From positions 1-64,000 of the forward strand of contig JBGAPX010000003.1 in the NCBI GenBank assembly GCA_044221045.1: a stretch of 64,000 bases of DNA, read 5' to 3'. Position numbers and translations under genes: made by a program. Of the stretch, positions 21,963-45,417 are shown piece by piece. How positions within the stretch are numbered: the stretch's first letter is position 1; each line of letters opens with the position of its first letter. Below the pieces are notes generated by a model, which searched no databases, was not told the DNA's origin, and worked only from the letters and a program-made list of their open reading frames with translations. This stretch comes from Gemmatimonadales bacterium. GTDB lineage: Bacteria > Gemmatimonadota > Gemmatimonadetes > Gemmatimonadales > GWC2-71-9.

Positions 21963-22238
21963 TCAGCCACCGGCGATCGTGGGGACGATCGTGAGGACGT
22001 CTTCGGCGTGGACGGCGGTCCGGACGCCGTCCAGGTCGCGGACGTTGTCGCGGTTGCGGAAGACATTGATGAAGCCGCGCAGTTCGCCGTTGTCGGCGAA
22101 GAGGTGGCGACGGAGCGAGGGAAAGCGATCCACGAGCGCGGTCAGCGCCTCGGCCACGGTCGCGGCCTCGGTGGTGAAGCGCTGCTCGCCGGCGGTATAG
22201 GGACGGAAGGTGGACGGGATCGCGAAGGTCACGGCCAT
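21963..22238 (-). CDS. MoaD/ThiS/CysO-type ubiquitin-like sulfur-carrier protein.
   Basis: 91 aa ending in ...IVPTIAGG (C-terminal Gly-Gly). It lies directly upstream of moeZ on the same strand. Confidence 0.75.
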   Translation of the reverse strand: MAVTFAIPSTFRPYTAGEQRFTTEAATVAEALTALVDRFPSLRRHLFADNGELRGFINVFRNRDNVRDLDGVRTAVHAEDVLTIVPTIAGG

Positions 22239-22468
22239 TGGCGGCTCCAGGGTCGGGGGACGGCGGGCACGGCGAGTCGGGGGTCTATCGGATCGAGCGC
22301 AGCCTCTACCAGGCGACGAGGACGCAGGCCCGCGATCTCCCGCCCGCCTCTGGGAACGCGCCGGTCGTCACGTGGCACCCCGCTTGCCCGCCGGAGGTGC
22401 ATCCACCGTGCCACCCGGTTCGAGGCGGGCGGCGGGGCGTGGGACATCCCGGGACCGTGGAGGACACC

Positions 22469-22630
22469 ATGCAGGTCAAGTTCCTGGCGCTGGGCGTGCT
22501 GTTCCTGATTCTGGGCGTGGCGATTCCCCTGCAGCGGTGGCCGGGCCAGCGCCTCCCGCAGGTGCTGCTGCCGCTGCTGGCCGGGGTGCTGGCGGGATTG
22601 CTCCTGGCGCGAGTGCGGCCCAGCGCGTGA
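22469..22630 (+). CDS. Small (53 aa) two-helix membrane protein.
   Basis: MQVKFLALGVLFLILGVAIPLQRW...LLPLLAGVLAGLLLA, preceded by GGAGGA (tggaggacaccATG). It is the first plus-strand gene of the cluster. Confidence 0.45.
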   Translation: MQVKFLALGVLFLILGVAIPLQRWPGQRLPQVLLPLLAGVLAGLLLARVRPSA

Positions 22631-22760
22631 GGCGCCGAGTGCACCCTCTACTGCGTGGAGGCCATGCTCTATCCCCGCCAGCTGCACGTGCCGGGGGCGC
22701 GGCGGGGCCGGCGCGCACAAGTGCCGTGACGGTCCCGTGTTAGGTGCTGCGCGGAGGGTA

Positions 22761-22776
22761 CGGCATGGCGCTTGCC
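22761..22776 (+). promoter_or_regulatory. Candidate sigma-54 (-24/-12) promoter upstream of the Nif11-type precursor gene.
   Basis: cGGCATggcgcTTGCc has a GG-N10-GC spacing like the TGGCAC-N5-TTGC consensus. It lies about 85 bp upstream of the ATG at 22860. A near-identical element is at 34186. Confidence 0.4.
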
Positions 22777-22859
22777 TCCGGGTCGGTACGCCGCACCCGC
22801 CGGGACCCGGCTCGGGTCCCCGCACCCTATCACCCACCTTCTTCACCGGAGTCACCGTC

Positions 22860-23141
22860 ATGCCCATCACTCGCGCGGAAGAGCTCATCCAGAAGCTCGG
22901 CACCGACCAGGCGTTTCGCTCCAAGCTGCAGAACGCGGCGGATCCCGAGGCGCGGCGCAAGGTGCTGAACGAGTACGGGTTCTCGGACGTGCAGCGCGCC
23001 GATCTCGAAGCCTACGCCAAGACGCACGCGACGGAGCTCTCCGACGCCGAGCTCGAGGCGGTCGCCGGTGGCCGCACCACCAGCTGGATCTCGGTGGTGA
23101 TCGAGTCGATCGGGCTGTCGCTGGCGGCGGCGGCGCTGTAG
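22860..23141 (+). CDS. RiPP precursor peptide with a Nif11-like leader (71 aa) and a 22-aa core RTTSWISVVIESIGLSLAAAAL.
   Basis: MPITRAEELIQKLGTDQAFRSKLQNAADPEARRKVLNEYGFSDVQRADLEAYAKTHATELSDAELEAVAGG is a Nif11-family leader ending in the LSDxELExVAGG double-glycine cleavage motif. The core has Ser/Thr but no Cys. Confidence 0.8.
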   Translation: MPITRAEELIQKLGTDQAFRSKLQNAADPEARRKVLNEYGFSDVQRADLEAYAKTHATELSDAELEAVAGGRTTSWISVVIESIGLSLAAAAL

Positions 23142-23280
23142 TCCAGGCCCCGGCCGCGCCGGTCGCCGGGTTCCCGCCGTCCCCCCGGGCGGCGGCACCC
23201 CCGGCCGGCGCCCGGTGCCGCCCGCGGACCGATTCCGGTCCGCGTCCCACATCCGCTTCCCCAGTCGCGAGCACCCGCCG

Positions 23281-24600
23281 ATGACCAGTACCTGCATGCC
23301 GAGGTCCGCGGAGCGGTCGCCGGCGCCGGGCGAACCCGCCCCGGCGCCCCCGATCCGTTTCCGGGGCCAGGACTACCGGGCACGGAAGGAGTTCTTCGGC
23401 GGTACCCACCGGGTCGTCCCGCCCGAGGAGACGCTGGAGCGCGCGCGACCCCACTTCCGGCGCGCGGGAATCACCCGGCTCGGTGACATCACGGGGCTCG
23501 ACGTGATCGGGTTGCCGACGGTGCTGGCGTACCGTCCCAACGGCAAGACGCTCTCGAGCGCGGGGGGCAAGGGCTTCACGACCGTCGCCGCGACGGTCTC
23601 GGCGGTGATGGAGGGGATCGAACTCCACCACGCCGAGAACGTGCGCCTGCCGGTCCGCCGCGCGAGCTACCAGGAGCTGGCGGCCGACGGCGCGGTCATC
23701 CCGCGCGCGCAACTCCCGCTGGCCCGGCACGGCCTGTTCCGGGACCACCGGCCGGAGCTGTGGGTCGAGGGATGGGACCTGCTGGGGCAGCACCCGGTGT
23801 GGGTGCCCTTCATCGGCGTATCGCTGGTCCGGCATCCGGCGCAGAAGCCGCTGTGGGGCCGCCCGTTCGTGTGCGACAGCAACGGCCTGGCCTCGGGCAA
23901 CGTGCTGCTGGAGGCGATGGCCGCCGCGCTCTATGAAGTGATCGAGCGTGACGCGATCTCCAGCTTCAAGTGCGCCGAGCACCGCGGCCTGCTGGAGCCG
24001 CGGCGGGTGCGCCTGGAGACGATCCGCCACCCGCTCGTCCGGCAACTGATCGACCAGTGCCAGCGGGCCGAGATCGAGCCGGTGATCTACGACCGGACGA
24101 CCGACCTCGAGGTGCCGGTCTACGAGGCCCACATCTACGATCGCTACCGCCGCCACACCGGGGTCTTCGGCGGCTATGGCTGCCACCTCGACCCGGAGAT
24201 CGCGATGATCCGGGCCCTGACCGAGGCGGCGCAGTCCCGGCTGGTGATCATCGCCGGCGCCCGCGACGACATCTTCCGCCATGAGGAGCTGTCGATGAAG
24301 CTCGCTGACGACGACGGCGCGGTGGAGCGCTACGAACGGACCCCCGCCACCCTCGACGCCCGGGACCGCGCCGCGGTCACGACGTCCTCGTTCGAGGGCG
24401 ACCTCGGCGTGCTGCTGGCGCGCCTGGCCGGGGCGGGGATCGGCCAGGTGATCGCGGTGGACCTCACCCACGAGGAGATCGGCCTGCCGGTCGTGCGGGT
24501 GATCGTCCCGGGGCTCGAGGGGTACATGTCGCAGCACTACGAGCCGGGGCCGCGGGCCCGCGCCTTCGTCGCGGCCGCCAAGGCCCGGAAGGGGGCCTGA
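23281..24600 (+). CDS. YcaO-domain protein of the TfuA-associated type (thioamide-forming / cyclodehydratase family).
   Basis: FFGGTHRVVPPEETLERARPHFRRAGITRLGDITGLDVIGLP...SNGLASGNVLLEAMAAALYEVIERDA matches YcaO ATP-binding motifs. Its stop overlaps the TfuA start (TGATG). The start (23281 or 23215) is uncertain. Confidence 0.85.
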   Translation: MTSTCMPRSAERSPAPGEPAPAPPIRFRGQDYRARKEFFGGTHRVVPPEETLERARPHFRRAGITRLGDITGLDVIGLPTVLAYRPNGKTLSSAGGKGFTTVAATVSAVMEGIELHHAENVRLPVRRASYQELAADGAVIPRAQLPLARHGLFRDHRPELWVEGWDLLGQHPVWVPFIGVSLVRHPAQKPLWGRPFVCDSNGLASGNVLLEAMAAALYEVIERDAISSFKCAEHRGLLEPRRVRLETIRHPLVRQLIDQCQRAEIEPVIYDRTTDLEVPVYEAHIYDRYRRHTGVFGGYGCHLDPEIAMIRALTEAAQSRLVIIAGARDDIFRHEELSMKLADDDGAVERYERTPATLDARDRAAVTTSSFEGDLGVLLARLAGAGIGQVIAVDLTHEEIGLPVVRVIVPGLEGYMSQHYEPGPRARAFVAAAKARKGA

Positions 24601-26000
24601 TGCGCGCGGTCGTCTTCCTCGGGCCCACCCTGCCGGTCGCGGAGGCCCGCCGCATCCTCGACGCGACCTACCTGCCGCCGGTGCGGCAGTCCGACCTGGT
24701 GAGCGCGGTGGGCATCCACCGCCCGGACGTCATCGCGATCGTCGACGGCGAGTTCCGGCACACCCTGTCGGTATGGCACAAGGAGATCCTGTTCGCCCTG
24801 GAGCGCGGGATCGCAGTCTACGGCGCGAGCAGCATGGGCGCGCTGCGCGCGGCCGAGTGCGACGCCTTCGGCATGGTTGGCGTGGGCGAGGTCTACCGCC
24901 AGTACGCCGACGGGACGATCGTCGACGACGACGAGGTCGCCCTGGCGCACGCACTCGACGAAGACGGCTACCGTCCCTTGTCGGAGCCGATGGTCAACCT
25001 CCGTGCCACCTTCGCCGCGGCGCGGGCCGCGGGCGTGGTGCGTCAGGCCGAACACGACACCCTGGTCCGCGTGGCCAAGGCCCGGTTCTTCGCCGAGCGG
25101 ACCCTGCCGGCGATCCTGCGGGACGCCGGCGCCGCCGGGGTGGCCGAGGCCACCCTCGAGGGGCTGCGGCGGTTCCTCGGCACCGGCTACGTGGACCAGA
25201 AGCGACTCGACGCGATCCGGCTGCTGGAGATGCTGCGGGACCGGCCCGAGCCCGGACCCGCCCCGGTCCCCTGCCGGGTGGAGCGCACCAGCCAGTTCCT
25301 GAGCCTGTACGAGCGTGACCGCCGGGTGCGCCACGACGGCGTCGAGGTGCCCCTGGCCGCGATCGCGAGCCACGCTGCACTCCACGATCCGGACTTCAAC
25401 GAGATCAACGACGCCGCGCTCGGCCGGGAGCTGGTTGCGATCCTGGCCGACCTGCTCGAGGTGAGCCCCACGGAGGAGGAAGTGGCGGAGGAGACCCGGC
25501 GGTTCCGGCTGCGGCGCCGCCTGCGGACCGACGCCGCCCTGGAGGAGTGGCAGGCGAGGAACGACCTGTTCCCGGAGGAGTTCGAGCGCCTGATGGCGCA
25601 GCGCGCCACCACCCGGGTGATGGAACAGTGGCTGGTCACACGGACCGGCTGGATGCGCCCCACCCGCTTCCTGCTGGACGAGCTGCGCCTGCGTGGTCGC
25701 TACGAGCAGGCCGCCGCGGCGGCCGCCGGGCTGGCCCGCACCTGCCAGGAGTACTTCCCGCACTTCGACCAGACCGGCACCGACCCGGCTCCCACGGAGG
25801 CGCTGGTCATCCGGCACCTGCGCGCGACGCGGTGCGCCATGGACACGCACTACTCGCGATGGTCGGAAGAGGCCGGCTTCCCCCGGCTGCTCGACCTGCG
25901 GAACGAACTGATCCGGTCCCAGCGGGTGCGGGAGCGGGTGGAGTCCCTGGCCCTCGAGGTCCTGGCCGGCGACCCCGCGGCCGCTGCGGCGCCGGCATGA
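24600..26000 (+). CDS. TfuA-like protein (YcaO partner) with an extra C-terminal domain of about 230 aa.
   Basis: The N-terminus MRAVVFLGPTLPVAEARRILDATYLPPVRQSDLVSAV...IAIVDGEF...SMGALRAAEC matches the TfuA domain. At 466 aa it is about twice the usual TfuA length. Confidence 0.8.
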   Translation: MRAVVFLGPTLPVAEARRILDATYLPPVRQSDLVSAVGIHRPDVIAIVDGEFRHTLSVWHKEILFALERGIAVYGASSMGALRAAECDAFGMVGVGEVYRQYADGTIVDDDEVALAHALDEDGYRPLSEPMVNLRATFAAARAAGVVRQAEHDTLVRVAKARFFAERTLPAILRDAGAAGVAEATLEGLRRFLGTGYVDQKRLDAIRLLEMLRDRPEPGPAPVPCRVERTSQFLSLYERDRRVRHDGVEVPLAAIASHAALHDPDFNEINDAALGRELVAILADLLEVSPTEEEVAEETRRFRLRRRLRTDAALEEWQARNDLFPEEFERLMAQRATTRVMEQWLVTRTGWMRPTRFLLDELRLRGRYEQAAAAAAGLARTCQEYFPHFDQTGTDPAPTEALVIRHLRATRCAMDTHYSRWSEEAGFPRLLDLRNELIRSQRVRERVESLALEVLAGDPAAAAAPA

Positions 26001-27931
26001 TCTCCCTGCTGCGCATCGCCCGGCCGTCGACGCTGGTGACGGCGCAGGTGTTCGAGGATCTCTTCGCGCGGGAATTCGGCGCGGCGTTCCGCCTGCGCCA
26101 CGTCACCCCCGCCGCCTGGGCGGACGCGATCCTCGGTCCGCCCGGCGCGCCGGCCAGCCCGGCGGCGGCCGCGCGGGCGTTCCGGGAGGCGGTGCGCGGG
26201 GTCGACGTCTGGTGTCCGGGCTACGAATGCCTGTCGCTGGTGCCCGAGTACACCTGGCTGCGCAACCGTGCGGGCGCCCGCGCCCGGCTGCTGCTGATCG
26301 CCCATTCCGGCGGGGCCACGCCCCTCGAGTGGGCGCTTCTCGCGCCGCTGCTGGCGCCCGGCGACGTGGTGGTCGCGCCCAGCGCCTCGGCGCGCGCGGC
26401 GATCGTGGCGCTCCATCCCGGACTCGCGCCCTTCCTGCACGTCATTCACCATCCCATGGCGCCCCTGCCCGGCGGTCCCCGCGCCCCGCAGCCGCTGCTG
26501 GTCAGCCTGGGCCGCCTGCACGCGGGAAAGTTCCTGCACCGGCAGCTCGATGCGCTCGCCTGGCTGCACGACCACGGCCGTGCGGTGCCGGATCTGGTGA
26601 TCGCGGGGCCGCTGGCCGAGGGGGGGCGCACCGAGCCGATGGCCTACGTGCAGGGCCTCCGGGCCCAGGCGGCGCGACTCGGGCTGGGCGGGCGGGTCCG
26701 CTTCAGCGGCGCGGTGATCGGGCCGGCGGCGAAGGGGCAGCTGCTCGGCGCCGCCCACCTGGTGCTCAATCTCTCCGGGACCCTCGAGGAGTCGTTCCCG
26801 AAGACGCCGGTGGAGGCGCTGGGCGTCGGCACGCCGGTGCTCGGGACCTGGTGGAACGGCGTGCGCGATACCGTGGGCGACTGCGGCACCCTGCTGCCGA
26901 TCCAGTTCGCCGGCACGCTCCCCGAGGTGCCCGACGTCGCGGTGCCCGCGCTGGCGGAGGCAATCGAGGCGCTGCTGGACCATCCGGTATCCCCGGAGCG
27001 CTGCCGGGCCCGCGCGGCGCAGTTCACCCCGGAGCGCATGATCGCGGCCTACCAGCGCACCCTCACGGCCGCCCTCGAGGGGGCGGGCCCGGGTCCGGAT
27101 GAGCCGCCGGCGGACCGACCGGCGGCGCCCGCCACGGGCCTGCTCTCGGCGGCCGCCCCGCTGCCCCAGGTGAGCTGGGCCTCGCTGTTCGGGGCGGCCC
27201 GCGCGGCGTCGGGCTGGTGGCGGGCGCAATGGGCGGCGCCGGGGAGCGGCACGCCTCCCGCCATCGAGCTGTATCGCCGCGTCGTGGAGGAAGCCGTGCG
27301 GCCGGCCCTTGAGCGCACCTTCGCCGGGCAGCCGGCGGGAGCGGCCGCCATGGCGTGCGGCGCGCCTGGCCAGCGGTTCGCCGATGCGGCGGATTCGGTG
27401 GCCGTCATGCATGCCGCGGCCACCGGCCGGGGCCTGCCGAGCGGCCGCTGCGCGGCGCTCCGGGTGCTGGTGGCCATGGGCGAAACCTCACGGGCGGCGG
27501 AGGGCCTCGCGTCGGTGCGCGCGGATGGAGCTGACGGTCCGGCCACGAGCCTGATCGCGCGCGACCTGCTCGCGCTGGCGGGCCGGCCGGGCGCGGCGCT
27601 GTCCGAGGCGCTCGCCGCCCTGGCGCCCAGCCGCCTGACGGACCGGGAGGTGGCGCCGCTCCGGCAGCTGGCGGTCCTCGCGCGGCAGGCGGGGGCCCCG
27701 GCCATCGCGATGCCGAGCCTGGCGGAGTGGCTCGACCGCCACCCCGACAGCCAGGAGTCCGGCCCCGTCTGGCTGGAACTCGCGGCCAATGGGCTGCAGG
27801 CGGGAGGCGCCGCCCTGCCGCTCGCGGCGCGGGCGCTGGAGCGGGCCCGCGCCCTGCTCGGCCAGCACCCCGTCGTGCTCCGCCTGACGGCAGCCCTGGA
27901 CCAGGCCCTGTTGCTCCACACCGCGGCCTGA
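25997..27931 (+). CDS. Glycosyltransferase family 1 (GT4-like) with a C-terminal alpha-helical region of about 290 aa.
   Basis: ATGA overlap with the TfuA stop. Glycos_transf_1 core: PDLVIAGPLAEGG...EESFPKTPVEALGVGTPVLGTWWNGVRDTVGD. Confidence 0.75.
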   Translation: MISLLRIARPSTLVTAQVFEDLFAREFGAAFRLRHVTPAAWADAILGPPGAPASPAAAARAFREAVRGVDVWCPGYECLSLVPEYTWLRNRAGARARLLLIAHSGGATPLEWALLAPLLAPGDVVVAPSASARAAIVALHPGLAPFLHVIHHPMAPLPGGPRAPQPLLVSLGRLHAGKFLHRQLDALAWLHDHGRAVPDLVIAGPLAEGGRTEPMAYVQGLRAQAARLGLGGRVRFSGAVIGPAAKGQLLGAAHLVLNLSGTLEESFPKTPVEALGVGTPVLGTWWNGVRDTVGDCGTLLPIQFAGTLPEVPDVAVPALAEAIEALLDHPVSPERCRARAAQFTPERMIAAYQRTLTAALEGAGPGPDEPPADRPAAPATGLLSAAAPLPQVSWASLFGAARAASGWWRAQWAAPGSGTPPAIELYRRVVEEAVRPALERTFAGQPAGAAAMACGAPGQRFADAADSVAVMHAAATGRGLPSGRCAALRVLVAMGETSRAAEGLASVRADGADGPATSLIARDLLALAGRPGAALSEALAALAPSRLTDREVAPLRQLAVLARQAGAPAIAMPSLAEWLDRHPDSQESGPVWLELAANGLQAGGAALPLAARALERARALLGQHPVVLRLTAALDQALLLHTAA

Positions 27932-27974: not shown

Positions 27975-29096
27975 ATGCGCAGCCTGGCCATCTGTCATCC
28001 CGCCGATCCGGACCTGGATCTGGCCACCGTCACCATCGCCGGCACGCCAGTCGCCACGGCCGCCCGGGAGATCGCCGACCCGCCCTTCGATCCTGAGGAG
28101 CCGGCCAACCGGTCGCTGGTCCGCCTCCGGGTGCTGGCTTTCTCGTGCAACTATCGGGACCGGGCCCGGATCATCGCCCTGGCGCAGAACATTCCCCCGG
28201 CGCGCTTCGCGACCTTCGGGTCGGAGTTCGTCGCGCTCGTGGAGGAGACCGGGGCCGACGTGACCCGGGTGCGGGCCGGCGAGCGCGTGATCGGGGACAA
28301 CCATTACGACATGCCGTTCCGCCTGGCCCAGCGCGATCCGGCCCGCCCGATCGGCATTCCCTCGGTGCAGGCCTCGCGCCGCTCGCTGCTGCTGCACGAG
28401 CGGGCGGTGGTGCCGGTCCCGAGCGTCATGCCGGATCCGGTCGCGGCGGCGTTCAGCCTGAATGCGCAGACGGCGTACAGCATGGTGCGCAAGCTGAGCC
28501 CCCCGCCCGGCGCGCCGATCCTGGTGACGGCCGGCAGCTCCAACACCTCGCTGTTCCTGCTGTCGGCCCTCTGCACCCGGCAGGCCGAGGTCTACGTGAC
28601 CACGACCTGTCCGCGCTGGATTCCCCGGCTCCGGGAGCTGGGGGCACGGGCGGTGTTCGACGTGCGGCGGGCCCCGAATGCGCTGGAGGAGCACGCCGCC
28701 CTGCGTCAGGCGGCCAACGCCGTCGGCGGGTTCTACGCGGTCTGCGACCCGTTCTTCGACCTCTACCTCCGCCAGTCGCTGCCGCTGGTCGCGCCCGGTG
28801 GGCGCTACATCACGTGCGGGCTGGAACGGCAGGGCCCCAACGCGGATGGGGAAGGCGGGAGCGACCCGGGCGAGGTGGCGATCGCGATGCAGATCGCGCT
28901 GTTCCGCAACCTCCAGCTCATCGGCAACTGCCTCGGGATGAGCGACGACCTGGCGCTGGCGCTGCGCGACTACGAGGCGGGGCGCCTTCCGGTCGTGGTG
29001 GACTCGGCGTTCGGCGGGGAGGATGCGGGCCCGTTCCTGGCCCGGACCTACACCACCGCCGACCGGTTCGGGAAGGTGGTCTTCCGGTATGACTAG
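27975..29096 (+). CDS. Medium-chain dehydrogenase/reductase (zinc-ADH/quinone-oxidoreductase fold); a candidate LanJ-type dehydro-amino-acid reductase.
   Basis: MDR fold: N-terminal GroES-like region (ERVIGD..), then a Rossmann region GAPILVTAGSSNTSLFLLSAL. It sits between the GT and LanM genes; its stop overlaps the LanM start by 8 nt. Confidence 0.65.
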   Translation: MRSLAICHPADPDLDLATVTIAGTPVATAAREIADPPFDPEEPANRSLVRLRVLAFSCNYRDRARIIALAQNIPPARFATFGSEFVALVEETGADVTRVRAGERVIGDNHYDMPFRLAQRDPARPIGIPSVQASRRSLLLHERAVVPVPSVMPDPVAAAFSLNAQTAYSMVRKLSPPPGAPILVTAGSSNTSLFLLSALCTRQAEVYVTTTCPRWIPRLRELGARAVFDVRRAPNALEEHAALRQAANAVGGFYAVCDPFFDLYLRQSLPLVAPGGRYITCGLERQGPNADGEGGSDPGEVAIAMQIALFRNLQLIGNCLGMSDDLALALRDYEAGRLPVVVDSAFGGEDAGPFLARTYTTADRFGKVVFRYD

Positions 29097-32256: not shown

Positions 32257-32269
32257 GGGCGCAGGGGTC

Positions 32270-37750: not shown

Positions 37751-40042
37751 ATGACTGCACCCATCGCCGAACCCACCCTGGCGGGCCGCCTGCAGCGGGT
37801 CGTGGCCGGGGGCCGGGCCCGCATGGAGGCCTGGCTGCCGGGCGGCCGCCCCGCGTCGCCAGCCGGGGACGAACCGGCCCCGCCGCCGGCCCGTCCGCAC
37901 CGACGGGTGCGGACGCCGACGGTGCTCCAGATGGAAGCGGTCGAGTGCGGCGCGGCCTCGCTGGCCATGATCCTCGCGCATTTCGGCCGGCACGTGCCGC
38001 TGGAGGAACTGCGGCTGGCCTGCGGGGTGTCCCGCGACGGCAGCAAGGCCAACAACGTGCTCAAGGCGGCCCGGGAATACGGGCTGGTGGCGAAGGGGTT
38101 CAAGCGGGAGCCGGCCGACCTGGCGACGATGCCGGTCCCGATGATCCTGCACTGGAACTTCAACCACTTCATCGTCTTCGAGGGATTCCGGAAGGGGCGG
38201 GCGTACCTCAACGACCCCAACTCCGGCCCGGCGTCGACCACGCTCGAGGAGTTCGACCAGGCCTTCACCGGGGTGTGCCTGACCTTCAGTCCGGGGCCGG
38301 CGTTCGCGCCGGGTGGGGAGTCGCCCAGCCTGCTGGCGCCGCTGCGCCGGCGGCTCGCGGGCTCGGGCGGCGCGGTGGTGTTCGTGGTGCTGGCCGGCTT
38401 GTCGCTGCTGCTGCCCGGGCTGGTGGCGCCGACCTTCAACCGCATCTACCTCGACGACCTCCTGGTGAAGGGGCTGCACGAGTGGCTGCGTCCGCTGCTG
38501 TGGGTCATGGGCCTCACGGCGACGGTCACCTTCGGGCTGGTGCTCCTGCAGCAGCGCTACCTGCTGCGCTTCGAGAGCAAGCTGTCGCTGGATACCTCCG
38601 GCAAGTTCCTGTGGCACGTCCTGCGGCTCCCGGTGGAGTTCTTCACCCAGCGGTACGCGGGCGAGATCGGGAACCGGGTGGGGATCAACGACAAGATCGC
38701 CCGGCTGCTGTCCGGCGACCTGGCCACCACCACCCTGAACGTCCTGGTGATCGCGGGCTACGCCGCGCTGCTGGTGCAGTACGACGGGCTGCTGACGGCG
38801 CTGTGCGTGGGCACGGCGGTGCTCAACATCCTGGCGCTGCGTTACGTCTCGCGGCGGCGCACCGACCTGAACCAGCGGATCCTGCAGGACCGCGGCAAGC
38901 TGATGGGGACCGCGATGGGCGGGCTGCAGACCATCGAGACCCTGAAGGCGACGGGCTCGGAGTCGGACTTCTTCGCCCGCTGGTCGGGGTACCAGGCGAA
39001 GGTCTCCAATGCCTTCCAGGACCTGCAGCTCACCACGCTCTTCCTCTCCAACGTCCCGCCGCTCCTGCTGGGCGTGACCACGGCGCTGGTGCTGGGCGTG
39101 GGCGGGGCGCGGGTGATGGACGGCTACCTGACGATGGGCATGCTGATCGCCTTCCAGTCGCTGATGTTCGCGTTCCTGGCGCCGGTCAACAAGCTGGTGG
39201 AGCTGGGCAGCACGCTGCAGGAGGTCCGCGGCGACATGAACCGGCTCGACGACGTGCTGCGCTACCGCACCGATCCCGGCCTGGAGGCGCTCGCCCCGGT
39301 GCCCGCGGAGGGCCACGTCAAGCTCGAGGGCTACCTGGAGCTGCGCGGGGTCACCTTCGGGTACAACCGGCTCGACCCGCCGCTCATCCAGGACTTCAAC
39401 CTCCGGCTGACACCGGGCATGCGGGTGGCGCTGGTCGGCGGCTCCGGCTGCGGCAAGACCACCGTGGCCAAGCTGGTCGCGGGGCTGTACCAGCCGTGGA
39501 GCGGCGAGATCCTCTTCGACGGCAAGCCGCGGACCGAGGTGCCGCGGCCGGTCCTGGTCAACTCGTTCGCCGTGGTGGATCAGGAAGTGAGCATGTTCGA
39601 GGAGTCGATCAAGGACAACCTGACGCTCTGGAACCACACCGTGCAGGAGCATGACCTGGTGCAGGCGGCCCGCGACGCGGCGATCCACGCCGACCTGGCC
39701 GACCGCCCGGGCGGCTACGCCTCGATGGTCGAGGAGGGCGGCCGGAACTTCAGCGGCGGGCAGCGCCAGCGCATGGAGATCGCGCGAGCGCTGGTGCTCA
39801 ATCCCGCGATCATGGTGCTCGACGAGGCGACCAGCGCGCTCGACGCCACGACGGAGAAGGAGATCGATGAGAGCCTGCGACGTCGCGGCTGCACCTGCCT
39901 CATCGTGGCGCACCGGCTGAGCACCATCCGCGACTGCGACGAGATCCTGGTGCTGGACAAGGGCCGCATCGCGCAGCGCGGCACCCATGCCGAGCTGATG
40001 GCGGTGGCCGGCCACTACCGTGACCTGATCGCCGCCGAGTAA
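37751..40042 (+). CDS. ABC transporter with an N-terminal C39 peptidase domain (double-glycine leader peptidase, permease and ATPase).
   Basis: C39 catalytic Cys in LQMEAVECGAASLAMIL and His in NHFIVFEG. Six-helix transmembrane domain. Walker A GGSGCGKTT, signature FSGGQRQR, Walker B MVLDEATSALD. Confidence 0.9.
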   Translation: MTAPIAEPTLAGRLQRVVAGGRARMEAWLPGGRPASPAGDEPAPPPARPHRRVRTPTVLQMEAVECGAASLAMILAHFGRHVPLEELRLACGVSRDGSKANNVLKAAREYGLVAKGFKREPADLATMPVPMILHWNFNHFIVFEGFRKGRAYLNDPNSGPASTTLEEFDQAFTGVCLTFSPGPAFAPGGESPSLLAPLRRRLAGSGGAVVFVVLAGLSLLLPGLVAPTFNRIYLDDLLVKGLHEWLRPLLWVMGLTATVTFGLVLLQQRYLLRFESKLSLDTSGKFLWHVLRLPVEFFTQRYAGEIGNRVGINDKIARLLSGDLATTTLNVLVIAGYAALLVQYDGLLTALCVGTAVLNILALRYVSRRRTDLNQRILQDRGKLMGTAMGGLQTIETLKATGSESDFFARWSGYQAKVSNAFQDLQLTTLFLSNVPPLLLGVTTALVLGVGGARVMDGYLTMGMLIAFQSLMFAFLAPVNKLVELGSTLQEVRGDMNRLDDVLRYRTDPGLEALAPVPAEGHVKLEGYLELRGVTFGYNRLDPPLIQDFNLRLTPGMRVALVGGSGCGKTTVAKLVAGLYQPWSGEILFDGKPRTEVPRPVLVNSFAVVDQEVSMFEESIKDNLTLWNHTVQEHDLVQAARDAAIHADLADRPGGYASMVEEGGRNFSGGQRQRMEIARALVLNPAIMVLDEATSALDATTEKEIDESLRRRGCTCLIVAHRLSTIRDCDEILVLDKGRIAQRGTHAELMAVAGHYRDLIAAE

Positions 40043-40054: not shown

Positions 40055-43045
40055 TTGCGGGAGCCCACGCGCATGGCTGACACGCTTTCGACATCCCCCG
40101 ACGCGCCCGCGGTCGACGCCCGGCTCTTCGACGCCGATGGCGGGCAGTCGCTCGACGTGGGCAGCGACCAGCCGTTCCTGCTCGATGACGACCGGATGTG
40201 GCTGGTGCAGCAGGGCCACGTGGAGGTCTTCTGCGTCCGGCTGGACCGGGGGAAGGCCACCGGCGCGCGCCACCACCTGCTGCGGGTCGGCGCCGGGCAG
40301 CCCCTGTTCGGGCTCGGGCCCGAGGCCACCGGGGGCGAGTGGGGCCTCCTCGCCGTCGGGACGTCGGGGACGCGGCTGCTACCGGTCCGCCGGGCCGCGC
40401 TGCGCGCGCTGGGCCGCGATCCGGCGCACGCCGGGGAAGTGGCGGCCCTGCTCGATCACTGGATCCACGCCCTGTGCGCCGCGATCACCGGCGACCTGCG
40501 GCCGAAGCGCGTCACCGAGCTCGCCGCGGGTGAGCCCCACGTGGTCGAGGAACGCGGCGCCGCCCGGCCCCGGCCGCCGATCGGCTGGATCCGGCACTCG
40601 GCGGGGCACGCCCTCCTGCTGGGGCGGCCCGAACTCGAGGTGAACGGGCACGGGTTCACCCCCGTGGCGCGGTCGGCCTGGCTCGAGCTGCTGCCGGAGA
40701 GCCGCTTCGAACTGGTGGAGACGGGGACCCTGGTGGCGGACGACGATGCCTGGTTCGGGCTGAGCCGGCTGCATGCCCTCGTGCTCCGCTATATGGGGCT
40801 CCAGATCCTGGAGTCGCAGGGCCGGGAGCGCGAGCGGCTGGAAGCGAAGGCGGCGCACGACCGGTCGGCGCTGCAGCAGGCCTGCGCCCGGCTGGCGGTG
40901 AGTCTCGACCCGGAGCTGGCCGAGGGCGAGGAGCTCGCCGGCCCCACGGAGGCCGAGCGCCGAACCGACCCGCGCGCGCCAGACGCCCTGTTCCTCGCCT
41001 GCCGCCTGGTGGGCCGGGCCGCCGGCGTCACCGTCGTGCCGCACCCGGCCGGTGAGGGGTCGGCCGTGCCGCGGGATCCGCTGGAGGCGATCGCGCGGGC
41101 CAGCCGCCTGCGGATGCGCCGCCTGGCGCTGCGCGGCGAGTGGTGGCGGGAGGACAACGGGCCGATGGTCGCCCGGCTGGCCGACGGCGACCACCCCGTG
41201 GCCCTGCTGCGCGACCGGAAGGGACAGTACCGGCTGCACCATCCGGTCGACCGCACCGAGGTCACGGTCACCCGTGAGGTGGCCGACACGCTCCACCCCT
41301 TCGCCCATGCCTTCTACCGTCCGTTCGCCGCCACCCGGCTCGGCGTGCGGGATGTGCTCCAGTTCGGCTTCCGCGGCTGCCAGCGCGACCTGTGGATGCT
41401 GCTCGCCTGTGGCCTCGCGGCCGCGGCGCTCGGCATGGTCCCGTCGATCGCCACCGGGGTGCTGTTCAACGACGTCATCCCCGCGGCCGCGCGCCCGGCG
41501 CTGGTGCAGATGACCGTCATCCTGATCGTCTGCGCGCTCGTCACCAGCCTGTTCACCGTGGCCCGCGGCATCGCCCTCCTCCGCATCGAAAGCCGGATGG
41601 GTGCCAGTGTCCAGGCGGCGGTCTGGGACCGGCTGCTGGGGCTGCCGCTGGCGTTCTTCCGGCCGTACACCGCCGGCGACCTCGCGGTGCGGGCGATGTC
41701 CATCGACGCCATGCGCCAGGTCATCTCGGGCACCACGGTGACCGCGCTGATGGGCGGCCTCTTCTCGGTTGGCAACGTCGCCCTGATGTTCTGGTACAGC
41801 GCCTCGATGGCGTGGCGGGCCTCCCTGCTGATCGGACTGGTGATCCTGCTGACCGGCATCGGCAGCTACTTCCAGCTCCGCTACAACCGGCAGATCTACA
41901 CCCTGCAGTCCAAGGTCTCGGGCCTGGTCCTGCAGCTCCTGGGCGCGATCGCGAAGCTCCGGGTGGCCGGCGCCGAGGTCCAGGCGTTCGCCCGCTGGGC
42001 CGACCGCTTCGCCGAGCAGCGCCGGCTCCAGTACGGCGTGCGCCGGATCCAGAACTGGGTCAGCGCCCTCAATGCCGCATTCCCGGTCCTGGCCTACCTG
42101 GTCATCTTCTGGATCGCCCTCCCGCTGATCACCGAGGGCCAGGAGATGCGGACCGGCGACTTCATGGCCTTCCTCTCCGCCTACGCTTCGTCCTCGGCCG
42201 CTCTCCTCTCCACCTGCATGGCGCTGCTCTCGACCCTCAACATCGTGCCGCTGTACGAGCAGGCGCGGCCGATCCTCGAGGCCCTGCCCGAGGTCGGCGC
42301 CGGCAAGGCGGACCCCGGGGTGCTCACCGGCGAGATCGAGGTCCAGCACGCCGTGTTCCGCTACAACCCGGATGGCCCGCCGGTGCTCCGCGACGTGACG
42401 CTGCAGATCCAGCCGGGGCAGTTCCTCGCCCTGGTCGGACCCTCCGGTTCCGGCAAGTCGACGATCCTCCGGCTGCTGCTGGGCTTCGAGACCCTGGAGT
42501 CGGGCGCCATCTACTTCGACGGGCAGGAGCTCGGTGGCCTCGACGTTCAGGCGGTGCGGCGCCAGATCGGGGTGGTGCTGCAGAGCGGGCGGCTGATGTC
42601 CGGGGACATCTTCACGAACATCGTCGGGTCCTCGCTGGCCACCCTGGACGAGGCGTGGGACGCGGCCCGCATGGCGGGCCTCGACGACGACGTCCGGGCC
42701 ATGCCGATGGGGATGCACACCGTGATCAGCGAGGGGGGAGGCACCCTCTCCGGCGGCCAGCGGCAGCGGCTCCTGATCGCCCGGGCCATCGTGCACCGGC
42801 CCCGGCTGCTGTTCTTCGACGAGGCGACGAGCGCGCTGGACAACCGCACGCAGGCGATCGTCAGCCGAAGCCTGGAGCAGCTGCAGGCCACCCGGATCGT
42901 GGTGGCCCACCGGCTCAGTACCATCGTGAACGCGGACCGGATCATCGTCCTGGACCGTGGCCGCATCGTCCAGAGCGGCCGCTACGAGGAGCTGATGGCC
43001 CGCGAGGGACTGTTTCGCGAACTCGCTCGACGGCAGATCGCCTGA
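40055..43045 (+). CDS. ABC transporter permease/ATPase with an N-terminal cyclic-nucleotide-binding-like domain (NHLP export-system second ABC subunit).
   Basis: The N-terminal roughly 330 aa are cNMP-binding-like (no peptidase motifs). Then a transmembrane domain, Walker A GPSGSGKST, LSGGQRQR and FFDEATSALD. Confidence 0.85.
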   Translation: MREPTRMADTLSTSPDAPAVDARLFDADGGQSLDVGSDQPFLLDDDRMWLVQQGHVEVFCVRLDRGKATGARHHLLRVGAGQPLFGLGPEATGGEWGLLAVGTSGTRLLPVRRAALRALGRDPAHAGEVAALLDHWIHALCAAITGDLRPKRVTELAAGEPHVVEERGAARPRPPIGWIRHSAGHALLLGRPELEVNGHGFTPVARSAWLELLPESRFELVETGTLVADDDAWFGLSRLHALVLRYMGLQILESQGRERERLEAKAAHDRSALQQACARLAVSLDPELAEGEELAGPTEAERRTDPRAPDALFLACRLVGRAAGVTVVPHPAGEGSAVPRDPLEAIARASRLRMRRLALRGEWWREDNGPMVARLADGDHPVALLRDRKGQYRLHHPVDRTEVTVTREVADTLHPFAHAFYRPFAATRLGVRDVLQFGFRGCQRDLWMLLACGLAAAALGMVPSIATGVLFNDVIPAAARPALVQMTVILIVCALVTSLFTVARGIALLRIESRMGASVQAAVWDRLLGLPLAFFRPYTAGDLAVRAMSIDAMRQVISGTTVTALMGGLFSVGNVALMFWYSASMAWRASLLIGLVILLTGIGSYFQLRYNRQIYTLQSKVSGLVLQLLGAIAKLRVAGAEVQAFARWADRFAEQRRLQYGVRRIQNWVSALNAAFPVLAYLVIFWIALPLITEGQEMRTGDFMAFLSAYASSSAALLSTCMALLSTLNIVPLYEQARPILEALPEVGAGKADPGVLTGEIEVQHAVFRYNPDGPPVLRDVTLQIQPGQFLALVGPSGSGKSTILRLLLGFETLESGAIYFDGQELGGLDVQAVRRQIGVVLQSGRLMSGDIFTNIVGSSLATLDEAWDAARMAGLDDDVRAMPMGMHTVISEGGGTLSGGQRQRLLIARAIVHRPRLLFFDEATSALDNRTQAIVSRSLEQLQATRIVVAHRLSTIVNADRIIVLDRGRIVQSGRYEELMAREGLFRELARRQIA

Positions 43046-43066
43046 TCCGCCGATCCCATCCGGAGA

Positions 43067-44248
43067 ATGCCCATGCCGCGCCCGCTCTCGTCCCCGTCAC
43101 TCCGCCTGCTGCTGCCGGCGCTCGCCGCGCTCCTGGGTTGCCAGGGGGGCCCGGCGCGCGGCCCGAACGACCCGATCGTCCTGGGGGTGGCGTGGCCCTG
43201 GCAGGCCCGGCAGGGCCTGCGCTTCGAGGACGGCCTGACCCTGGCGATCGAGGAGACCAACGCGGCGGGCGGGGTGCTGGGCCGGCCGCTGTCCCTGCGG
43301 CGGGTCGATGACGAGGAGTCCGTGGACGCCGGGCGCCTCGCAGCCCAGGCGCTCGCGGCCGATCCCGAGGTGACGGCGGTGATCGGGCACCTGCAGTCGT
43401 ACGTGGCCGTGCCCGCGGCGGCGATCTACGACCTGGCGGGCAAGGTCCTCCTGGCGCCGGCGGCCACCGACCCGCGCCTCACCGCCCTGGGCTACCCGCG
43501 GGTGTTCCGGGCCACCTTCACCGACCGGGTCGTCGGTGAGACCCTGGCGAGCTACGCCCGGGCGCAGGGCTATCGCCGGATCGCGATCTGCTACATCCGC
43601 AACACCTACGGCCGCAACCTGGCCAACGCCTTCGAGGAGGACGCCATCGCCCATGGCCTGCAGATCGTGGCCCGCCAATCCTACGATCCCAGCGACCAGG
43701 TGAGCGAGCGCACGTTCAGCGAGATGGTGGCCGACTGGCGGCACGAACCGCTCGATGCCGTGTTCCTCGCCGGTGAAACCCCCTCGGCCGGCCACTTCCT
43801 GGTCGAGGCCCGCCGCCAGGGGCTGCAGGTGCCCGTCCTCGGTGGTGACGCGCTGAGTTCCCCCGAACTGCTGCAGGTGGCCGGCGCCGACGCCGAGGGG
43901 GTGGTGGTCGCCACGATCTTCCATCCCGACGATCCGCGCCCCGAAGTCCGCCGCTTCACGGACGCCTTCCGCCGACGCTTCGGCATCGCCCCGGACCCGG
44001 GCGCGGCGATCGGCTACGACGCGGTCCGCCTGCTCGCGGACGCCATGACGCGCGCCGGCTCGGTGGACCCGGCCCCCCTGGCCACGGCCCTGCACGCCAC
44101 GCGCGACTTCACGGGGGTGACCGGCACCTTCACCTTCGGCCCCGACGGCGACCTGATCGGCAAGGCACCGGTCATCGTCCAGGTGCGCCAGGGCGAGTTC
44201 GCCTTCCGGGGCGCGCCCGCGCCCGGCGCGCAGATGGCCGCGCGATGA
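43067..44248 (+). CDS. Periplasmic substrate-binding lipoprotein (type I PBP, LivK / branched-chain amino acid-binding-like); an orphan with no permease genes.
   Basis: Lipobox ALLGCQGG. Peripla_BP_6-type sequence IVLGVAWPWQARQG...AVIGHLQSYVAV... Confidence 0.75.
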   Translation: MPMPRPLSSPSLRLLLPALAALLGCQGGPARGPNDPIVLGVAWPWQARQGLRFEDGLTLAIEETNAAGGVLGRPLSLRRVDDEESVDAGRLAAQALAADPEVTAVIGHLQSYVAVPAAAIYDLAGKVLLAPAATDPRLTALGYPRVFRATFTDRVVGETLASYARAQGYRRIAICYIRNTYGRNLANAFEEDAIAHGLQIVARQSYDPSDQVSERTFSEMVADWRHEPLDAVFLAGETPSAGHFLVEARRQGLQVPVLGGDALSSPELLQVAGADAEGVVVATIFHPDDPRPEVRRFTDAFRRRFGIAPDPGAAIGYDAVRLLADAMTRAGSVDPAPLATALHATRDFTGVTGTFTFGPDGDLIGKAPVIVQVRQGEFAFRGAPAPGAQMAAR

Positions 44249-45417
44249 CGAGCGCCAGGGCCTGCCCCGCCGGCGCGCAGCACGACCCGGACTACCGCGC
44301 AGCCATCCTGCGGCGCCACGGGGCCGATGCCGGCACCCTCGCGGAGCTGCTGGCGTACACGGCGAGTGCGTTCTCGCGGCCCGACGTGATGCCGGCCGAC
44401 TATCCCCTGCCCGACGAGCGATTCGTTGCGGCCTGGGAGCGCTACGCCGCGTCGGCCGCGGAGCGCGGCGTGGTGCCCGTGCTCCGCGAGGCGCTGGTAC
44501 AGCTGCGCTTTCCCATCGTCGAGGGCATCAGCCAGACCGAGGCCTACCGCGCCGCGACCCAGCGGGGCGCAGGCCCGACGGAGGGGGCAGTGCATCCGGG
44601 GCTGGCCTTCGTCGCCCCCGACCGGATCGAGCTGCTGCTCTATCCCACGCCCGCGGGCCGGATCCCGGTGATCATCGCCCGGGAGCGCGCCGATTTCGAG
44701 ACCCTGGTCCGCGCCCTCACGCGGAAGAATGAGCCGGCGCCGGTGCCCCCGTCCATGGGCGCGTGCATCGTGGGCGGCTACAACAACTGGGAACGGGTGG
44801 CCCGGCTGCGGGAGGCGTGGCAGGCGGAGGTGGCGGAGCCGTCGGAGGCGGCGTGGGCGGAGGAATTCCGGGCCCTCGTGCCGCGAAAGGAGATGTACCA
44901 GGACCGGTTCATCCTGCTGAGCGCCGGCCCCTACAGCGCCGTGCCCGGCGCCGCCCTCGGCCTGAGCGCCACCGCCTGGGCCGAGCGCTCCCTGGTCCTG
45001 CGGCTGGAGCATGAATGCGCCCACTACTTCACGCGGCGGGTCTTCCAGTCCATGAGGAACGTGCTGCTCGACGAGCTGCTCGCCGATTTCATGGGAATCG
45101 TGGCGGTCCGCGGACGTTACTCTGCTGGCTGGTTCCTCCACTTCCTCGGGCTGGAGCAGTACCCCCAGTGCCGCGCCGGCGGCCGGATGGAGAACTACCG
45201 TGGCTCCCCGCCGCTCTCCGCCGCTGCCCTCGACGTGCTGTCGTCGCTGGTCCGGGCCGCAGCCTTCAACCTTGAACGGCTGGACCTGGAGCGATCCGCG
45301 CCGGCCTGGGGGCTGGTGGAAAAGGGCCGCACGCTCGCGACACTGACCGAAATGTCACTCGAGGCCCTCGGCGACCCGGCGATGGTCACGAGGGTGTGGA
45401 AAACGGCGCTGGGATGA
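44245..45417 (+). CDS. Hypothetical protein with an HExxH motif (putative metallopeptidase).
   Basis: RLEHECAHYFTRRVF contains HECAH. 4-bp overlap with the upstream gene. It is the last plus-strand gene before the regulatory gap. Confidence 0.55.
   Translation: MTSARACPAGAQHDPDYRAAILRRHGADAGTLAELLAYTASAFSRPDVMPADYPLPDERFVAAWERYAASAAERGVVPVLREALVQLRFPIVEGISQTEAYRAATQRGAGPTEGAVHPGLAFVAPDRIELLLYPTPAGRIPVIIARERADFETLVRALTRKNEPAPVPPSMGACIVGGYNNWERVARLREAWQAEVAEPSEAAWAEEFRALVPRKEMYQDRFILLSAGPYSAVPGAALGLSATAWAERSLVLRLEHECAHYFTRRVFQSMRNVLLDELLADFMGIVAVRGRYSAGWFLHFLGLEQYPQCRAGGRMENYRGSPPLSAAALDVLSSLVRAAAFNLERLDLERSAPAWGLVEKGRTLATLTEMSLEALGDPAMVTRVWKTALG

Follow-up and report, generated by a model that had tools for sequence, protein, structure and literature searches.

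Positions 1 to 64,000 of contig JBGAPX010000003.1 from a Gemmatimonadales bacterium (assembly GCA_044221045.1), a 64,000-nt stretch referred to here as the window, carry a genuine, conserved and uncharacterised gene cluster of the Gemmatimonadota for a peptide made on the ribosome and then altered post-translationally (RiPP). An initial annotation of this DNA had read positions 22,238–45,417 as one large hybrid RiPP cluster. While the RiPP content was right, the cassette lacks the export module in four of eight related loci, and the locus is therefore better read as two modules, a conserved core cassette (module A) and a separable module B, than as a monolithic hybrid. The span contains the genes listed for it but misses a second glycosyltransferase (GT), the sulfur carrier ThiS, a ThiF-rhodanese fusion and a CPBP-family protein. 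We consider it probable that the locus is sigma-54-driven and operates by the two-module mechanism laid out below, the most likely products being a hydrophobic peptide that carries thioamidation, glycosylation and dehydrated or D residues, and a second, Trp-prenylated peptide.

In the proposed pathway, module A (~18.1–32.3 kb) would mature a precursor with a Nif11-type leader. ThiS would first be thiocarboxylated by the ThiF-rhodanese protein, and its sulfur would pass via TfuA to an ATP-dependent YcaO enzyme that converts at least one backbone amide of the Nif11 core to a thioamide. A zinc-less LanM-like enzyme would then phosphorylate Ser/Thr and eliminate the phosphate to give dehydroalanine (Dha) or dehydrobutyrine (Dhb), at minimum at residue 2, with lanthionine formation predicted to be impossible. 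Reduction of the dehydro residues to D-Ala or D-2-aminobutyrate (D-Abu) would fall to a medium-chain dehydrogenase/reductase (MDR), in the manner of LanJA/NpnJA, and two GTs would add the sugar(s). In module B (33.1–45.4 kb), an enzyme of predicted ABBA fold would lipidate the single Trp of an NHLP-type core by prenylation. An ABC transporter with a C39 peptidase would cut the shared leaders, which end in ELSDxxLE..GG, and the TolC/HlyD/ABC1/ABC2 exporter would secrete the products of both modules; a UPF0489-family protein may in addition turn Arg to ornithine. The chemical steps, their order, the modification sites and any bioactivity are what we infer from the genes described in the following.

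Because the high GC content of the window (70–77%) fills mechanical lists of open reading frames (ORFs) mostly with spurious frames, genes were called from third-position GC content and the ORFs then translated. To assign families, ORFs from the 18–48 kb region were searched against Pfam and NCBIfam profiles, NCBIfam bit scores being compared with curated cut-offs. The models for YcaO, TfuA, DUF4135/LanM, Nif11, NHLP, HlyD, both ABC proteins (ABC1 and ABC2), ThiS, ThiF and UPF0489 all exceeded their curated cut-offs; in particular, the YcaO, TfuA and LanM-type (DUF4135) proteins named by the initial annotation were all assigned, and the families behind its main combination—a thioamidation YcaO-TfuA pair, a LanM-type dehydratase, an MDR, glycosylation and NHLP/Nif11 export—were confirmed by profiles. 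Between 22.4 and 45.4 kb the plus strand carries every real gene, as expected from the collinear single-strand arrangement first described, and coding sequences overlap between YcaO and TfuA, TfuA and GT, and MDR and LanM. Gene identities, synteny, loss of zinc ligands, absence of Cys, conservation of promoter elements and the prenyltransferase fold are computed results.

For comparison, all window proteins were searched by local tblastn against 88 fetched loci, and the neighbourhoods of the homologues were inspected. Eight distinct loci carry the cassette: the window, L001/L011, L002/L003, L004/L009 (Longimicrobium), L005, L006, L008 and L010, all from Gemmatimonadota or from unassigned metagenome contigs of similar GC content (66–74%). 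The order is GT4, ThiF-rhodanese and ThiS on one side, and Nif11, YcaO, long TfuA, long GT, MDR and LanM-like on the other; identities across the eight loci, ThiS/ThiF/GT4 included, range from 39 to 75%. The recurrence of the same gene order in seven further distinct loci, at 39–59% protein identity, places the arrangement beyond chance. Module B (the prenyltransferase-like gene, the NHLP gene and, where the sequence reaches, the exporter) lies beside module A in the window, L006, L008 and L010, i.e. in four of the eight. A related locus, L087, comes from the cultured purple sulfur bacterium Thiorhodovibrio winogradskyi (CP121472.1, 1,567,981–1,583,099) and holds a LanM, an MDR (46% identical), a YcaO (38%), a TfuA, a prenyltransferase-like homologue and an unknown 578-aa protein, so the quartet of LanM, MDR, YcaO and TfuA occurs beyond the Gemmatimonadota. 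These genes surround five NHLP precursors with Cys-free cores that are rich in Ala, Val, Ser and Thr and end in W(G)K.

The same conservation bears on whether a natural product is made at all. YcaO, TfuA, ThiS and ThiF might instead modify a housekeeping protein, as in the case of McrA in methanogens, or take part in making cofactors, with the GTs serving the cell envelope and the adjacency being coincidental; ThiF/MoeZ and ThiS families do occur in molybdopterin and thiamin pathways, and GT4 enzymes are common in envelope biosynthesis. However, the gene order is kept together with a Nif11 precursor in all eight loci and is tightened by coding overlaps, a core motif is conserved after the GG cleavage site, sigma-54 elements precede precursor and ThiS/GT4 operons alike, and dedicated C39 exporters are adjacent. 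We disfavour this explanation and regard it as barely credible.

The precursor of module A (22,860–23,141, plus strand) matches the Nif11 profiles (PF07862 E=5.8e-9; TIGR03798 56.3 bits, cut-off 32.3). Its leader ends in ELSDAELEAVAGG, its Cys-free core is RTTSWISVVIESIGLSLAAAAL, and 140 nt separate its end from the start of YcaO, an arrangement kept in the eight loci. Aligned with the orthologous cores (RTATWTVVIATTVAATIVGAATVGLIP, TSASWVLVSLAAIALAVA, ESASWAAVIIAAVALALM, KTSTWILVSLAAVALL, ATTAWLTAIILILVA and RTAIW.../ATAIWVIAISTTVLAAVSAL), it reveals a motif x-[ST]-x-x-W with an invariant Ser/Thr at position 2 and an invariant Trp at position 5, followed by a strongly hydrophobic tail of 10–22 residues (grand average of hydropathy 1.9–3.2). 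In L010 (~1200–2600), two tandem Nif11 copies differ only at core position 1 (R/A). The three GG-leader precursors announced by the initial annotation do exist and share the leader tail ELSDxxLE..GG, but they are not grouped at the 5′ end: the Nif11 gene alone comes before YcaO, while the NHLP-leader and short GG-leader genes are found just before TolC, away from the Nif11 gene. The interval 22,238–22,860, in which precursors had been placed, carries a small membrane ORF instead. The cores were rightly called cysteine-free: Cys is missing from all three window cores as well as from the orthologous Nif11 and NHLP cores. Arg occurs in all three window cores, and the cores have two to seven Ser/Thr.

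The YcaO enzyme (23,281–24,600, plus strand; PF02624 E=1.5e-76) is of the thioamidation type. Its top NCBIfam model is the YcaO of McrA-glycine thioamidation, and its nearest solved structures are the thioamide-forming MJ1094 (5e-37) and the M. kandleri YcaO (7e-19), compared with weaker matches (~1e-15) to the azoline-forming TruD, LynD and MusD; it is 45–59% identical across all family loci. TfuA (24,600–26,000, plus strand; PF07812 E=9.8e-46) has its domain at residues 1–213, which match the solved structure of TfuA 6XP8 over its full length (E=1e-40), and continues into a conserved C-terminal extension of ~250 aa without a Pfam match (family lengths 460–543 aa). Since the TfuA start overlaps the YcaO stop codon (cTGATGc), the translational coupling of the pair, as first noted, is real. 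The sulfur would come from genes on the minus strand: a ThiS/MoaD/SAMP-like carrier (21,963–22,238; PF02597 E=1.1e-9; NF041918 65.9 bits, cut-off 60), kept in all family loci and ending in ...TIAGG, i.e. with a Gly-Gly end, and a ThiF/MoeZ-type adenylyltransferase-rhodanese fusion (20,766–21,938; PF00899 E=5.4e-81; PF00581 E=8e-15; MoeZ/MoeB models), 61–75% identical in all family loci except L010, whose fetched sequence stops short. TfuA reportedly hydrolyses the ThiS thiocarboxylate and so supplies sulfur to YcaO.

Two GTs accompany this set. The long GT that follows TfuA, again as annotated (25,997–27,931, plus strand; ATGA overlap with TfuA), has a GT1/GT4-type catalytic domain (PF00534 E=2.7e-13) and orthologues of 528–660 aa, 42–51% identical, at the corresponding place in every family locus; its C-terminal extension of ~300 aa has no Pfam domain, only a sub-threshold TPR match. 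The second GT does not lie at the end of the cluster, where the last two genes had been taken for glycosyltransferases and instead encode a periplasmic binding protein and a DUF7005 protein. It is a GT4-family enzyme at 18,657–20,756 on the minus strand (Glyco_trans_1_4, Glycos_transf_1 and Glyco_transf_4 matches), with homologues of 45–61% identity flanking the cassette in L001, L002, L005, L006 and L008. In the window genome only, this enzyme has ~250 extra C-terminal residues (699 aa, compared with 424–449 aa elsewhere) with weak sulfotransferase-like matches (Sulfotransfer_3 E=0.0016, Stf0 E=0.004). In L006, ThiS, ThiF and GT4 are located within the operon, between MDR and LanM, a placement that strongly supports a part for both the sulfur relay and the second GT in the pathway.

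The LanM-like protein (29,089–32,256, plus strand) is exactly 1055 aa long, as first stated, and carries a DUF4135 dehydratase domain (PF13575 E=2e-90; TIGR03897 427 bits, cut-off 304, the match covering only profile positions 3–778 of 932). Its kinase/lyase blocks VYKPKDL, D..DN, DLE and R.T align with those of CylM and LicM2 and are invariant in its clade. The description as a LanM-like synthetase holds for this part of the protein only: the Pfam search found no LanC domain (PF05147), and in an alignment with canonical LanMs the zinc-ligand motifs SWCxG and CHG are absent or gapped, both in this protein and in the 13 nearest to it. The N-terminal 234 aa matched no Pfam domain, and beyond an identical entry the best matches are 39–42% identical. 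Judged by the zinc-ligand motifs, the protein is a zinc-less enzyme of the LanMbC type that cannot act as a canonical lanthionine cyclase. As the zinc ligands of the cyclase domain are all lost and no core has a Cys, the system is not a lanthipeptide system, and assignment to the canonical class II lanthipeptides was rejected.

The closest characterised parallel is found in the dehydrazoles (carnazolamide; CcaM, Nat Commun 2023, PMC10676384), in which the same DUF4135 domain and zinc-ligand-free LanC-like domain, along with a YcaO, act on precursors with the same long NHLP/Nif11-type leaders and form no lanthionine. The window protein and the myxobacterial LanMbC enzymes belong to a common zinc-less clade with the C-terminal motif RWFPERL..D.H.LS. 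The Cystobacter fuscus enzyme falls in this clade, and the C. fuscus cluster is listed among those with LanMbC, i.e. DUF4135 plus a zinc-independent cyclase (PMC10676384); the same study finds LanMbC always accompanied by a YcaO, and its genome mining had already turned up one LanMbC cluster in which a YcaO-TfuA pair is additionally present. Such kinship would suit a route in which the YcaO is a cyclodehydratase that makes (methyl)oxazolines from Ser/Thr and the LanM-like enzyme then dehydrates adjacent Ser/Thr. Unlike in dehydrazole clusters, however, the only YcaO of the window is of the TfuA-dependent thioamidation type by its best-matching models and structures, is coupled to TfuA and, as in every family locus, is accompanied by ThiS/ThiF (the ThiF side of L010 lies outside the fetched sequence). 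The Pfam and NCBIfam scans of ORFs found neither an E1-like/docking partner nor a flavin mononucleotide (FMN)-dependent dehydrogenase; the window also lacks an azoline dehydrogenase, a radical S-adenosylmethionine (SAM) epimerase and a methyltransferase, its cores have no Cys and few Ser/Thr, and it adds the MDR, two GTs and ThiS/ThiF to the dehydrazole set. With no azoline-forming YcaO and no dehydrogenase, assignment to the dehydrazoles was rejected, and we hold oxazoline formation by this YcaO to be very improbable.

In myxobacteria (L017 Vitiosangium, L026 Myxococcus, L042 Pyxidicoccus, L018/L019 Cystobacter fuscus), relatives of the zinc-less LanM-like protein with 32–36% identity are encoded beside a giant gene of Ser/Thr kinase-like type. 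Three of these loci, L017, L026 and L042, have a YcaO-TfuA pair immediately downstream, which in L017 comes on top of a fused YcaO.

The MDR gene (27,975–29,096, plus strand) adjoins the LanM gene in all eight family loci and also in L087 and L088. Its product scores above the cut-off for ADH_N, whereas the matches to ADH_zinc_N (25.9 bits) and ADH_zinc_N_2 (21.2 bits) stay below the respective cut-offs. Among solved structures the enoyl reductases CurF, CurK, PpsC and ETR1 come closest, and the protein belongs to a distinct, tightly conserved subfamily. The initial reading as a LanJ-like reductase next to the LanM-like gene is compatible with these matches, and by analogy the protein is a candidate Dha/Dhb reductase of the LanJA type. 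In NpnJA/LanJA systems (npn; lacticin 3147 LtnJ; rodencin RodJA), NHLP/Nif11-type precursors are modified by a class II-type dehydratase and an NADPH-dependent MDR; the npn cluster of Nostoc punctiforme combines NpnJA and a dehydratase with Cys-free peptides, for which linear D-amino-acid peptides are predicted. Those systems lack thioamidation, glycosylation and a sulfur relay, unlike the window. The MDR subfamily is represented in L087 and also on the cyanobacterial contig L088, where its neighbours are LanM genes and several NHLP precursors without Cys. MDR matches in L064 and L048 were discarded, as they overlap a different, 578-aa gene family.

The company of these enzymes also admits a chemistry that joins them more closely, namely a Cys-independent thiazol(in)e, S-heterocycle or crosslink formed when the thioamide sulfur at residue i−1 adds to Dha/Dhb, or displaces the phosphate of phospho-Ser/Thr, at residue i. 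The zinc-less LanC-like domain would catalyse or template the Michael-type addition, leaving it to the MDR to adjust how far the ring is oxidised. This would explain why a thioamide system, a zinc-less dehydratase that keeps a LanC-like fold and a redox enzyme are inseparable in eight loci and in Thiorhodovibrio despite the lack of Cys, and would suit the invariant Ser/Thr at core position 2. Yet the proposal is a chemical inference alone: we know of no enzymatic precedent for thiazoline formation from a thioamide and Dha/Dhb, nor of any MDR enzyme acting as an azoline oxidoreductase, and reduction of the LanJA type is simpler and has direct precedent. We thus consider ring formation quite improbable, and retain reduction to D residues as the step assigned to the MDR.

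Promoter-like elements tie the cassette together. A sigma-54 promoter-like element TGGCAC-N5-TTGC (22,373–22,387, plus strand), the sole exact match in the 64 kb (0.07 expected), sits in the divergent intergenic region, where a near-match on the opposite strand (22,398–22,413) faces the ThiS operon. A second −24/−12-like element, CGGCAT-N5-TTGC (22,761–22,775, plus strand), lies 99 nt 5′ of the Nif11 ATG. The relaxed pattern GGCA[CT]-N5-TTGC has only these two occurrences in the window, at 22,374 and 22,762. Elements of this kind are found 59–131 nt 5′ of Nif11 in L001, L002, L005 (one mismatch), L006, L008 and L010 (both copies), but also 5′ of the NHLP gene in L008 and of the NHLP genes in Thiorhodovibrio; in L001, L002 and L006 they stand 5′ of the operon of ThiS or GT4. 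A sigma-54-dependent transcriptional activator (enhancer-binding protein) is encoded at 45,656–46,897 on the plus strand (PF00158 E=7e-63), and L008 and L073 have homologues of 54% identity within their clusters or next to them. The conserved elements, together with the activator in the window and L008, indicate that precursor, tailoring and sulfur-relay operons are co-regulated. A search for sigma-70 promoters and intrinsic terminators between 21.9 and 48.5 kb returned nothing above shuffled expectation. Directly downstream of the activator gene are a class-V aminotransferase/cysteine desulfurase-like gene (46,912–48,144; PF00266 E=2e-66), which has no counterpart in the related loci, and a gene for a SET-domain protein (48,242–48,652). 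The desulfurase-like protein could feed sulfur to the rhodanese-ThiS relay.

Module B opens with one of two genes left as unknowns by the initial annotation, both of which can now be placed, one in the peptide-arginase superfamily UPF0489 and the other as a prenyltransferase-like protein of ABBA fold. The latter (33,059–34,099, plus strand; 346 aa) has a predicted fold, the alpha-beta-beta-alpha (ABBA) PT-barrel, that matches aromatic prenyltransferases only, making it a candidate leader-dependent Trp prenyltransferase. The NHLP-leader precursor (34,261–34,635, plus strand; TIGR03793 54.1 bits, cut-off 50.9) has the core AQQSAWAGELGPISVPAAGFILNGAYVQSRGTLGRRS, with one Trp and no Cys; an ORF at 34,274–34,513 was dismissed as a precursor, being in the wrong frame by third-position GC. 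The NHLP cores (AQQSAW..., QQTDWAEGLG, GDLDLAHW in L008 and DSGDWAPPPPPPGGP) are short and share Trp alone. None of these four cognate cores lacks a Trp, and the Thiorhodovibrio cores have one as well; in the window core it is the predicted prenylation site. A precedent is MppC of Moorena producens (JACS 2025, PMC12715784), a soluble, leader-dependent ABBA Trp-indole prenyltransferase that acts on a Nif11-leader peptide and needs an L(X)4L motif, which all three window precursors contain; unlike MppC, the window protein is assigned by predicted fold, and its cognate cores have neither Cys nor a macrocycle.

Between the LanM-like and prenyltransferase-like genes lies that of the UPF0489-family protein (32,267–33,034, plus strand; PF12640 34.5 bits, cut-off 27), found in the window only and absent from the seven related loci. 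The superfamily includes the RiPP peptide arginases OspR, BipC and FlmR (PMC12707348), and the protein gives weak matches to a peptide-arginase model and to OspR (8BRP). Its DLDLD(FF) motif stands before HH.E and DAHAD. In OspR and human C5orf22 the motifs come in the opposite order, which suggests a circularly permuted or rearranged arginase-like fold for the window protein.

A short GG-leader peptide (34,670–34,867, plus strand; lantibiotic-leader model TIGR03898 24.8 bits, cut-off 23.5), preceded by an AGGAG ribosome-binding site, has a leader ending in ...ELSDADLEHAVGG and the core LARVWLGADLPRSEDVLFRSALPAHPAVS. It was located in the window, L006 and L010, and homologues lie directly 5′ of TolC in L006 (14,440–14,619), L010 (~15,422) and L073 (~19,469). 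The short cores begin with LAR(V/T)(W/L), or LTRRF in L006; L073 is an otherwise different LanM cluster in which the short GG peptide nevertheless precedes the exporter TolC. Rather than a tailored product, this may be a signalling or co-secreted peptide associated with the exporter.

The export genes follow on the plus strand: a TolC-like outer-membrane efflux protein (34,875–36,434; PF02321 E=3.7e-19), an NHLP HlyD-type adaptor (36,475–37,731; TIGR03794 362.5 bits, cut-off 156), an NHLP ABC transporter with an N-terminal C39 peptidase (37,751–40,042; TIGR03796 1076 bits, cut-off 853; PF03412 E=1e-33) and a second NHLP ABC permease/ATPase (40,073–43,045; TIGR03797 934 bits, cut-off 709). The TolC-like, HlyD-like and C39 ABC genes were thus correctly recognised at the outset, as was the completeness of NHLP/Nif11 export, with TIGR03793, TIGR03798, TIGR03794, TIGR03796 and TIGR03797 all above their cut-offs. 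The fourth gene does encode an ABC transporter, but not one with the cyclic-nucleotide (cNMP) domain ascribed to it: its N-terminal ~300 aa have no cNMP or other Pfam match even at E<=10. The arrangement of TIGR03793/03798 precursors with a TIGR03794/03796/03797 exporter is that of NHLP/Nif11 export (Haft, Basu & Mitchell 2010, PMC2887384), to which the window operon adds three genes, one TolC-like, one for a periplasmic binding protein and one for a DUF7005 protein with an HExxH motif. The binding protein (43,067–44,248, plus strand; PF13458 E=1.2e-50) is of the Leu/Ile/Val-binding type; in L006, too, the gene after the second ABC gene encodes a protein of identical Pfam domain content. The DUF7005 gene (44,245–45,417, plus strand; PF22541 E=8.9e-138) overlaps it by ATGA and encodes the invariant block RLEHECxHYFTRR...SMRN...DEL[IL]AD; homologues of 43–50% identity lie beside cyanobacterial loci with LanM and NHLP export (L025, L030, L041, L045, L052, L055, L063 and L066). 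On the strength of its motif, DUF7005 may be an unrecognised RiPP-associated metallopeptidase.

With both modules in view, one may ask whether they form a single pathway, in which all tailoring enzymes act on all three precursors to yield a family of hypermodified peptides. The common leader tail ELSDxxLE..GG speaks for this, as do the single-strand gene order with short gaps or overlaps, the invariant Trp that the Nif11 core likewise possesses, and L087, where only one type of NHLP precursor, with Cys-free hydrophobic cores that end in W(G)K, is found amid the genes for LanM, MDR, YcaO, TfuA and the prenyltransferase-like protein. Against this, the cassette occurs without prenyltransferase, NHLP and export genes in four of the eight loci, the NHLP cores have no conserved Ser/Thr (the L008 core being GDLDLAHW), the different LanM cluster L073 has the same exporter type and a similar short GG peptide, and the UPF0489 gene is confined to a single locus. 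We regard full integration as unlikely, while giving it some weight, and prefer two modules with separate precursors that meet at the exporter.

Several points weigh against the two-module pathway as proposed. In four of the eight loci no exporter lies within 10 kb, which makes the sharing of the exporter by both modules a presumption. Core position 2 is the sole invariant Ser/Thr, so that conservation does not tell where, or how extensively, dehydration, reduction and glycosylation would take place, and one or both GTs could act on a non-peptide acceptor. The nucleotide-binding motif of the MDR (TAGSSNTS) is atypical, though kept across the subfamily. The 346-aa protein has no Pfam or NCBIfam prenyltransferase match at E<=0.01, and its fold model derives from a four-sequence alignment with a predicted local distance difference test (pLDDT) score of 74. 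The UPF0489 protein reaches only 23.9 bits with the peptide-arginase model NF052474 (cut-off 350), and its motifs THHRE, DAHAD and DLDLD occur in a non-canonical order, with DLDLD N-terminal. Finally, the zinc-less LanMbC of the dehydrazoles requires an adjacent azole (PMC10676384). By analogy, the LanM-like dehydratase may need prior YcaO modification as in the dehydrazoles, and thioamidation may be an obligatory core-recognition element for LanMbC-type dehydratases, like the azole there.

Among other known systems, thioamitides (the thioviridamide family) share the adjacent YcaO-TfuA pair and the dehydration of Ser/Thr in the same pathway, which in the window is predicted, and the Ala/Val-rich hydrophobic stretches of the window cores resemble known thioamidation sites. 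Unlike in thioamitides, the dehydrating enzyme of the window is of the LanM type, and the thioamitide hallmarks are absent: a C-terminal Cys or S-aminovinyl-cysteine (AviCys), a LanD-like decarboxylase, a phosphotransferase/HopA1-like lyase pair and His methylation. The Pfam and NCBIfam scans found neither a LanD-like decarboxylase nor a phosphotransferase/HopA1-like lyase among the ORFs at 18–48 kb, and with no AviCys machinery the thioamitide assignment was rejected. TfuA clusters with Nif11-like GG precursors, MoeB, GT4 and dedicated transporters were described by Malit et al. 2021 (PMC8120280); they come from other phyla, and LanM and MDR are not reported there. In the open full-text literature (subscription journals not covered), no combination of YcaO-TfuA, zinc-less LanM, MDR, two GTs and ThiS/ThiF was found, nor a description of the x-(S/T)-x-x-W core family or of a Gemmatimonadota product of such kind. 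Each enzyme type has a characterised precedent; it is the combination that appears new, and the system is not categorically new. On gene content, the suggested "new natural-product family" is plausible, and no such characterised family appeared in the literature searched.

Some genes in or next to the cassette may provide immunity. The CPBP/Rce1-like intramembrane protease family, often employed for bacteriocin immunity, is represented at 18,091–18,672 (plus strand; PF02517 E=6.8e-19), and a homologue of 56% identity lies between the ThiS and Nif11 genes of the Longimicrobium locus L004; the protein is a candidate immunity factor. A hydrophobic 53-aa ORF (22,469–22,630, plus strand), supported by third-position GC, encodes a putative membrane peptide with a putative immunity or accessory role. 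L001, L002 and L005 also have small membrane ORFs at this point, without sequence homology between them and that of the window, and these are likewise candidate immunity factors. Just beyond the cluster boundary lies a gene for a large SPFH/Band-7 (flotillin-like) membrane protein (16,112–18,016, minus strand), for which the related loci gave no link to the cluster. Four related loci, though not the window, encode a small P-loop kinase-type protein (AAA_28/AAA_33-like) with GT4/ThiS/ThiF (L001/L002 1–400, L006 6526–7140, L008 841–1437). In L004 (7511–8773) and L005 (7732–8871), an extra gene of 380–420 aa without a Pfam match sits between GT and MDR; its sequence suggests a SAM methyltransferase-like fold and a lineage-specific tailoring step.

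The locus is a solid, well-delimited discovery lead. Onto the easily engineered scaffold of a Nif11 leader it would bring four chemistries, namely thioamidation with its own ThiS/ThiF, LanMbC-type dehydration, LanJA-type reduction and glycosylation, and it could reveal whether zinc-less LanMs generally depend on an earlier YcaO modification. Characterisation would yield tools for leader-dependent thioamidation and prenylation as well as the product of the x-(S/T)-x-x-W-hydrophobic core, with the Thiorhodovibrio winogradskyi locus as an entry point in a cultured organism with a complete genome. Almost no natural products have been characterised from the Gemmatimonadota, and the presence of the cassette in at least three lineages (Gemmatimonadales, Gemmatimonadaceae and Longimicrobium) means that its peptide is probably ecologically relevant.

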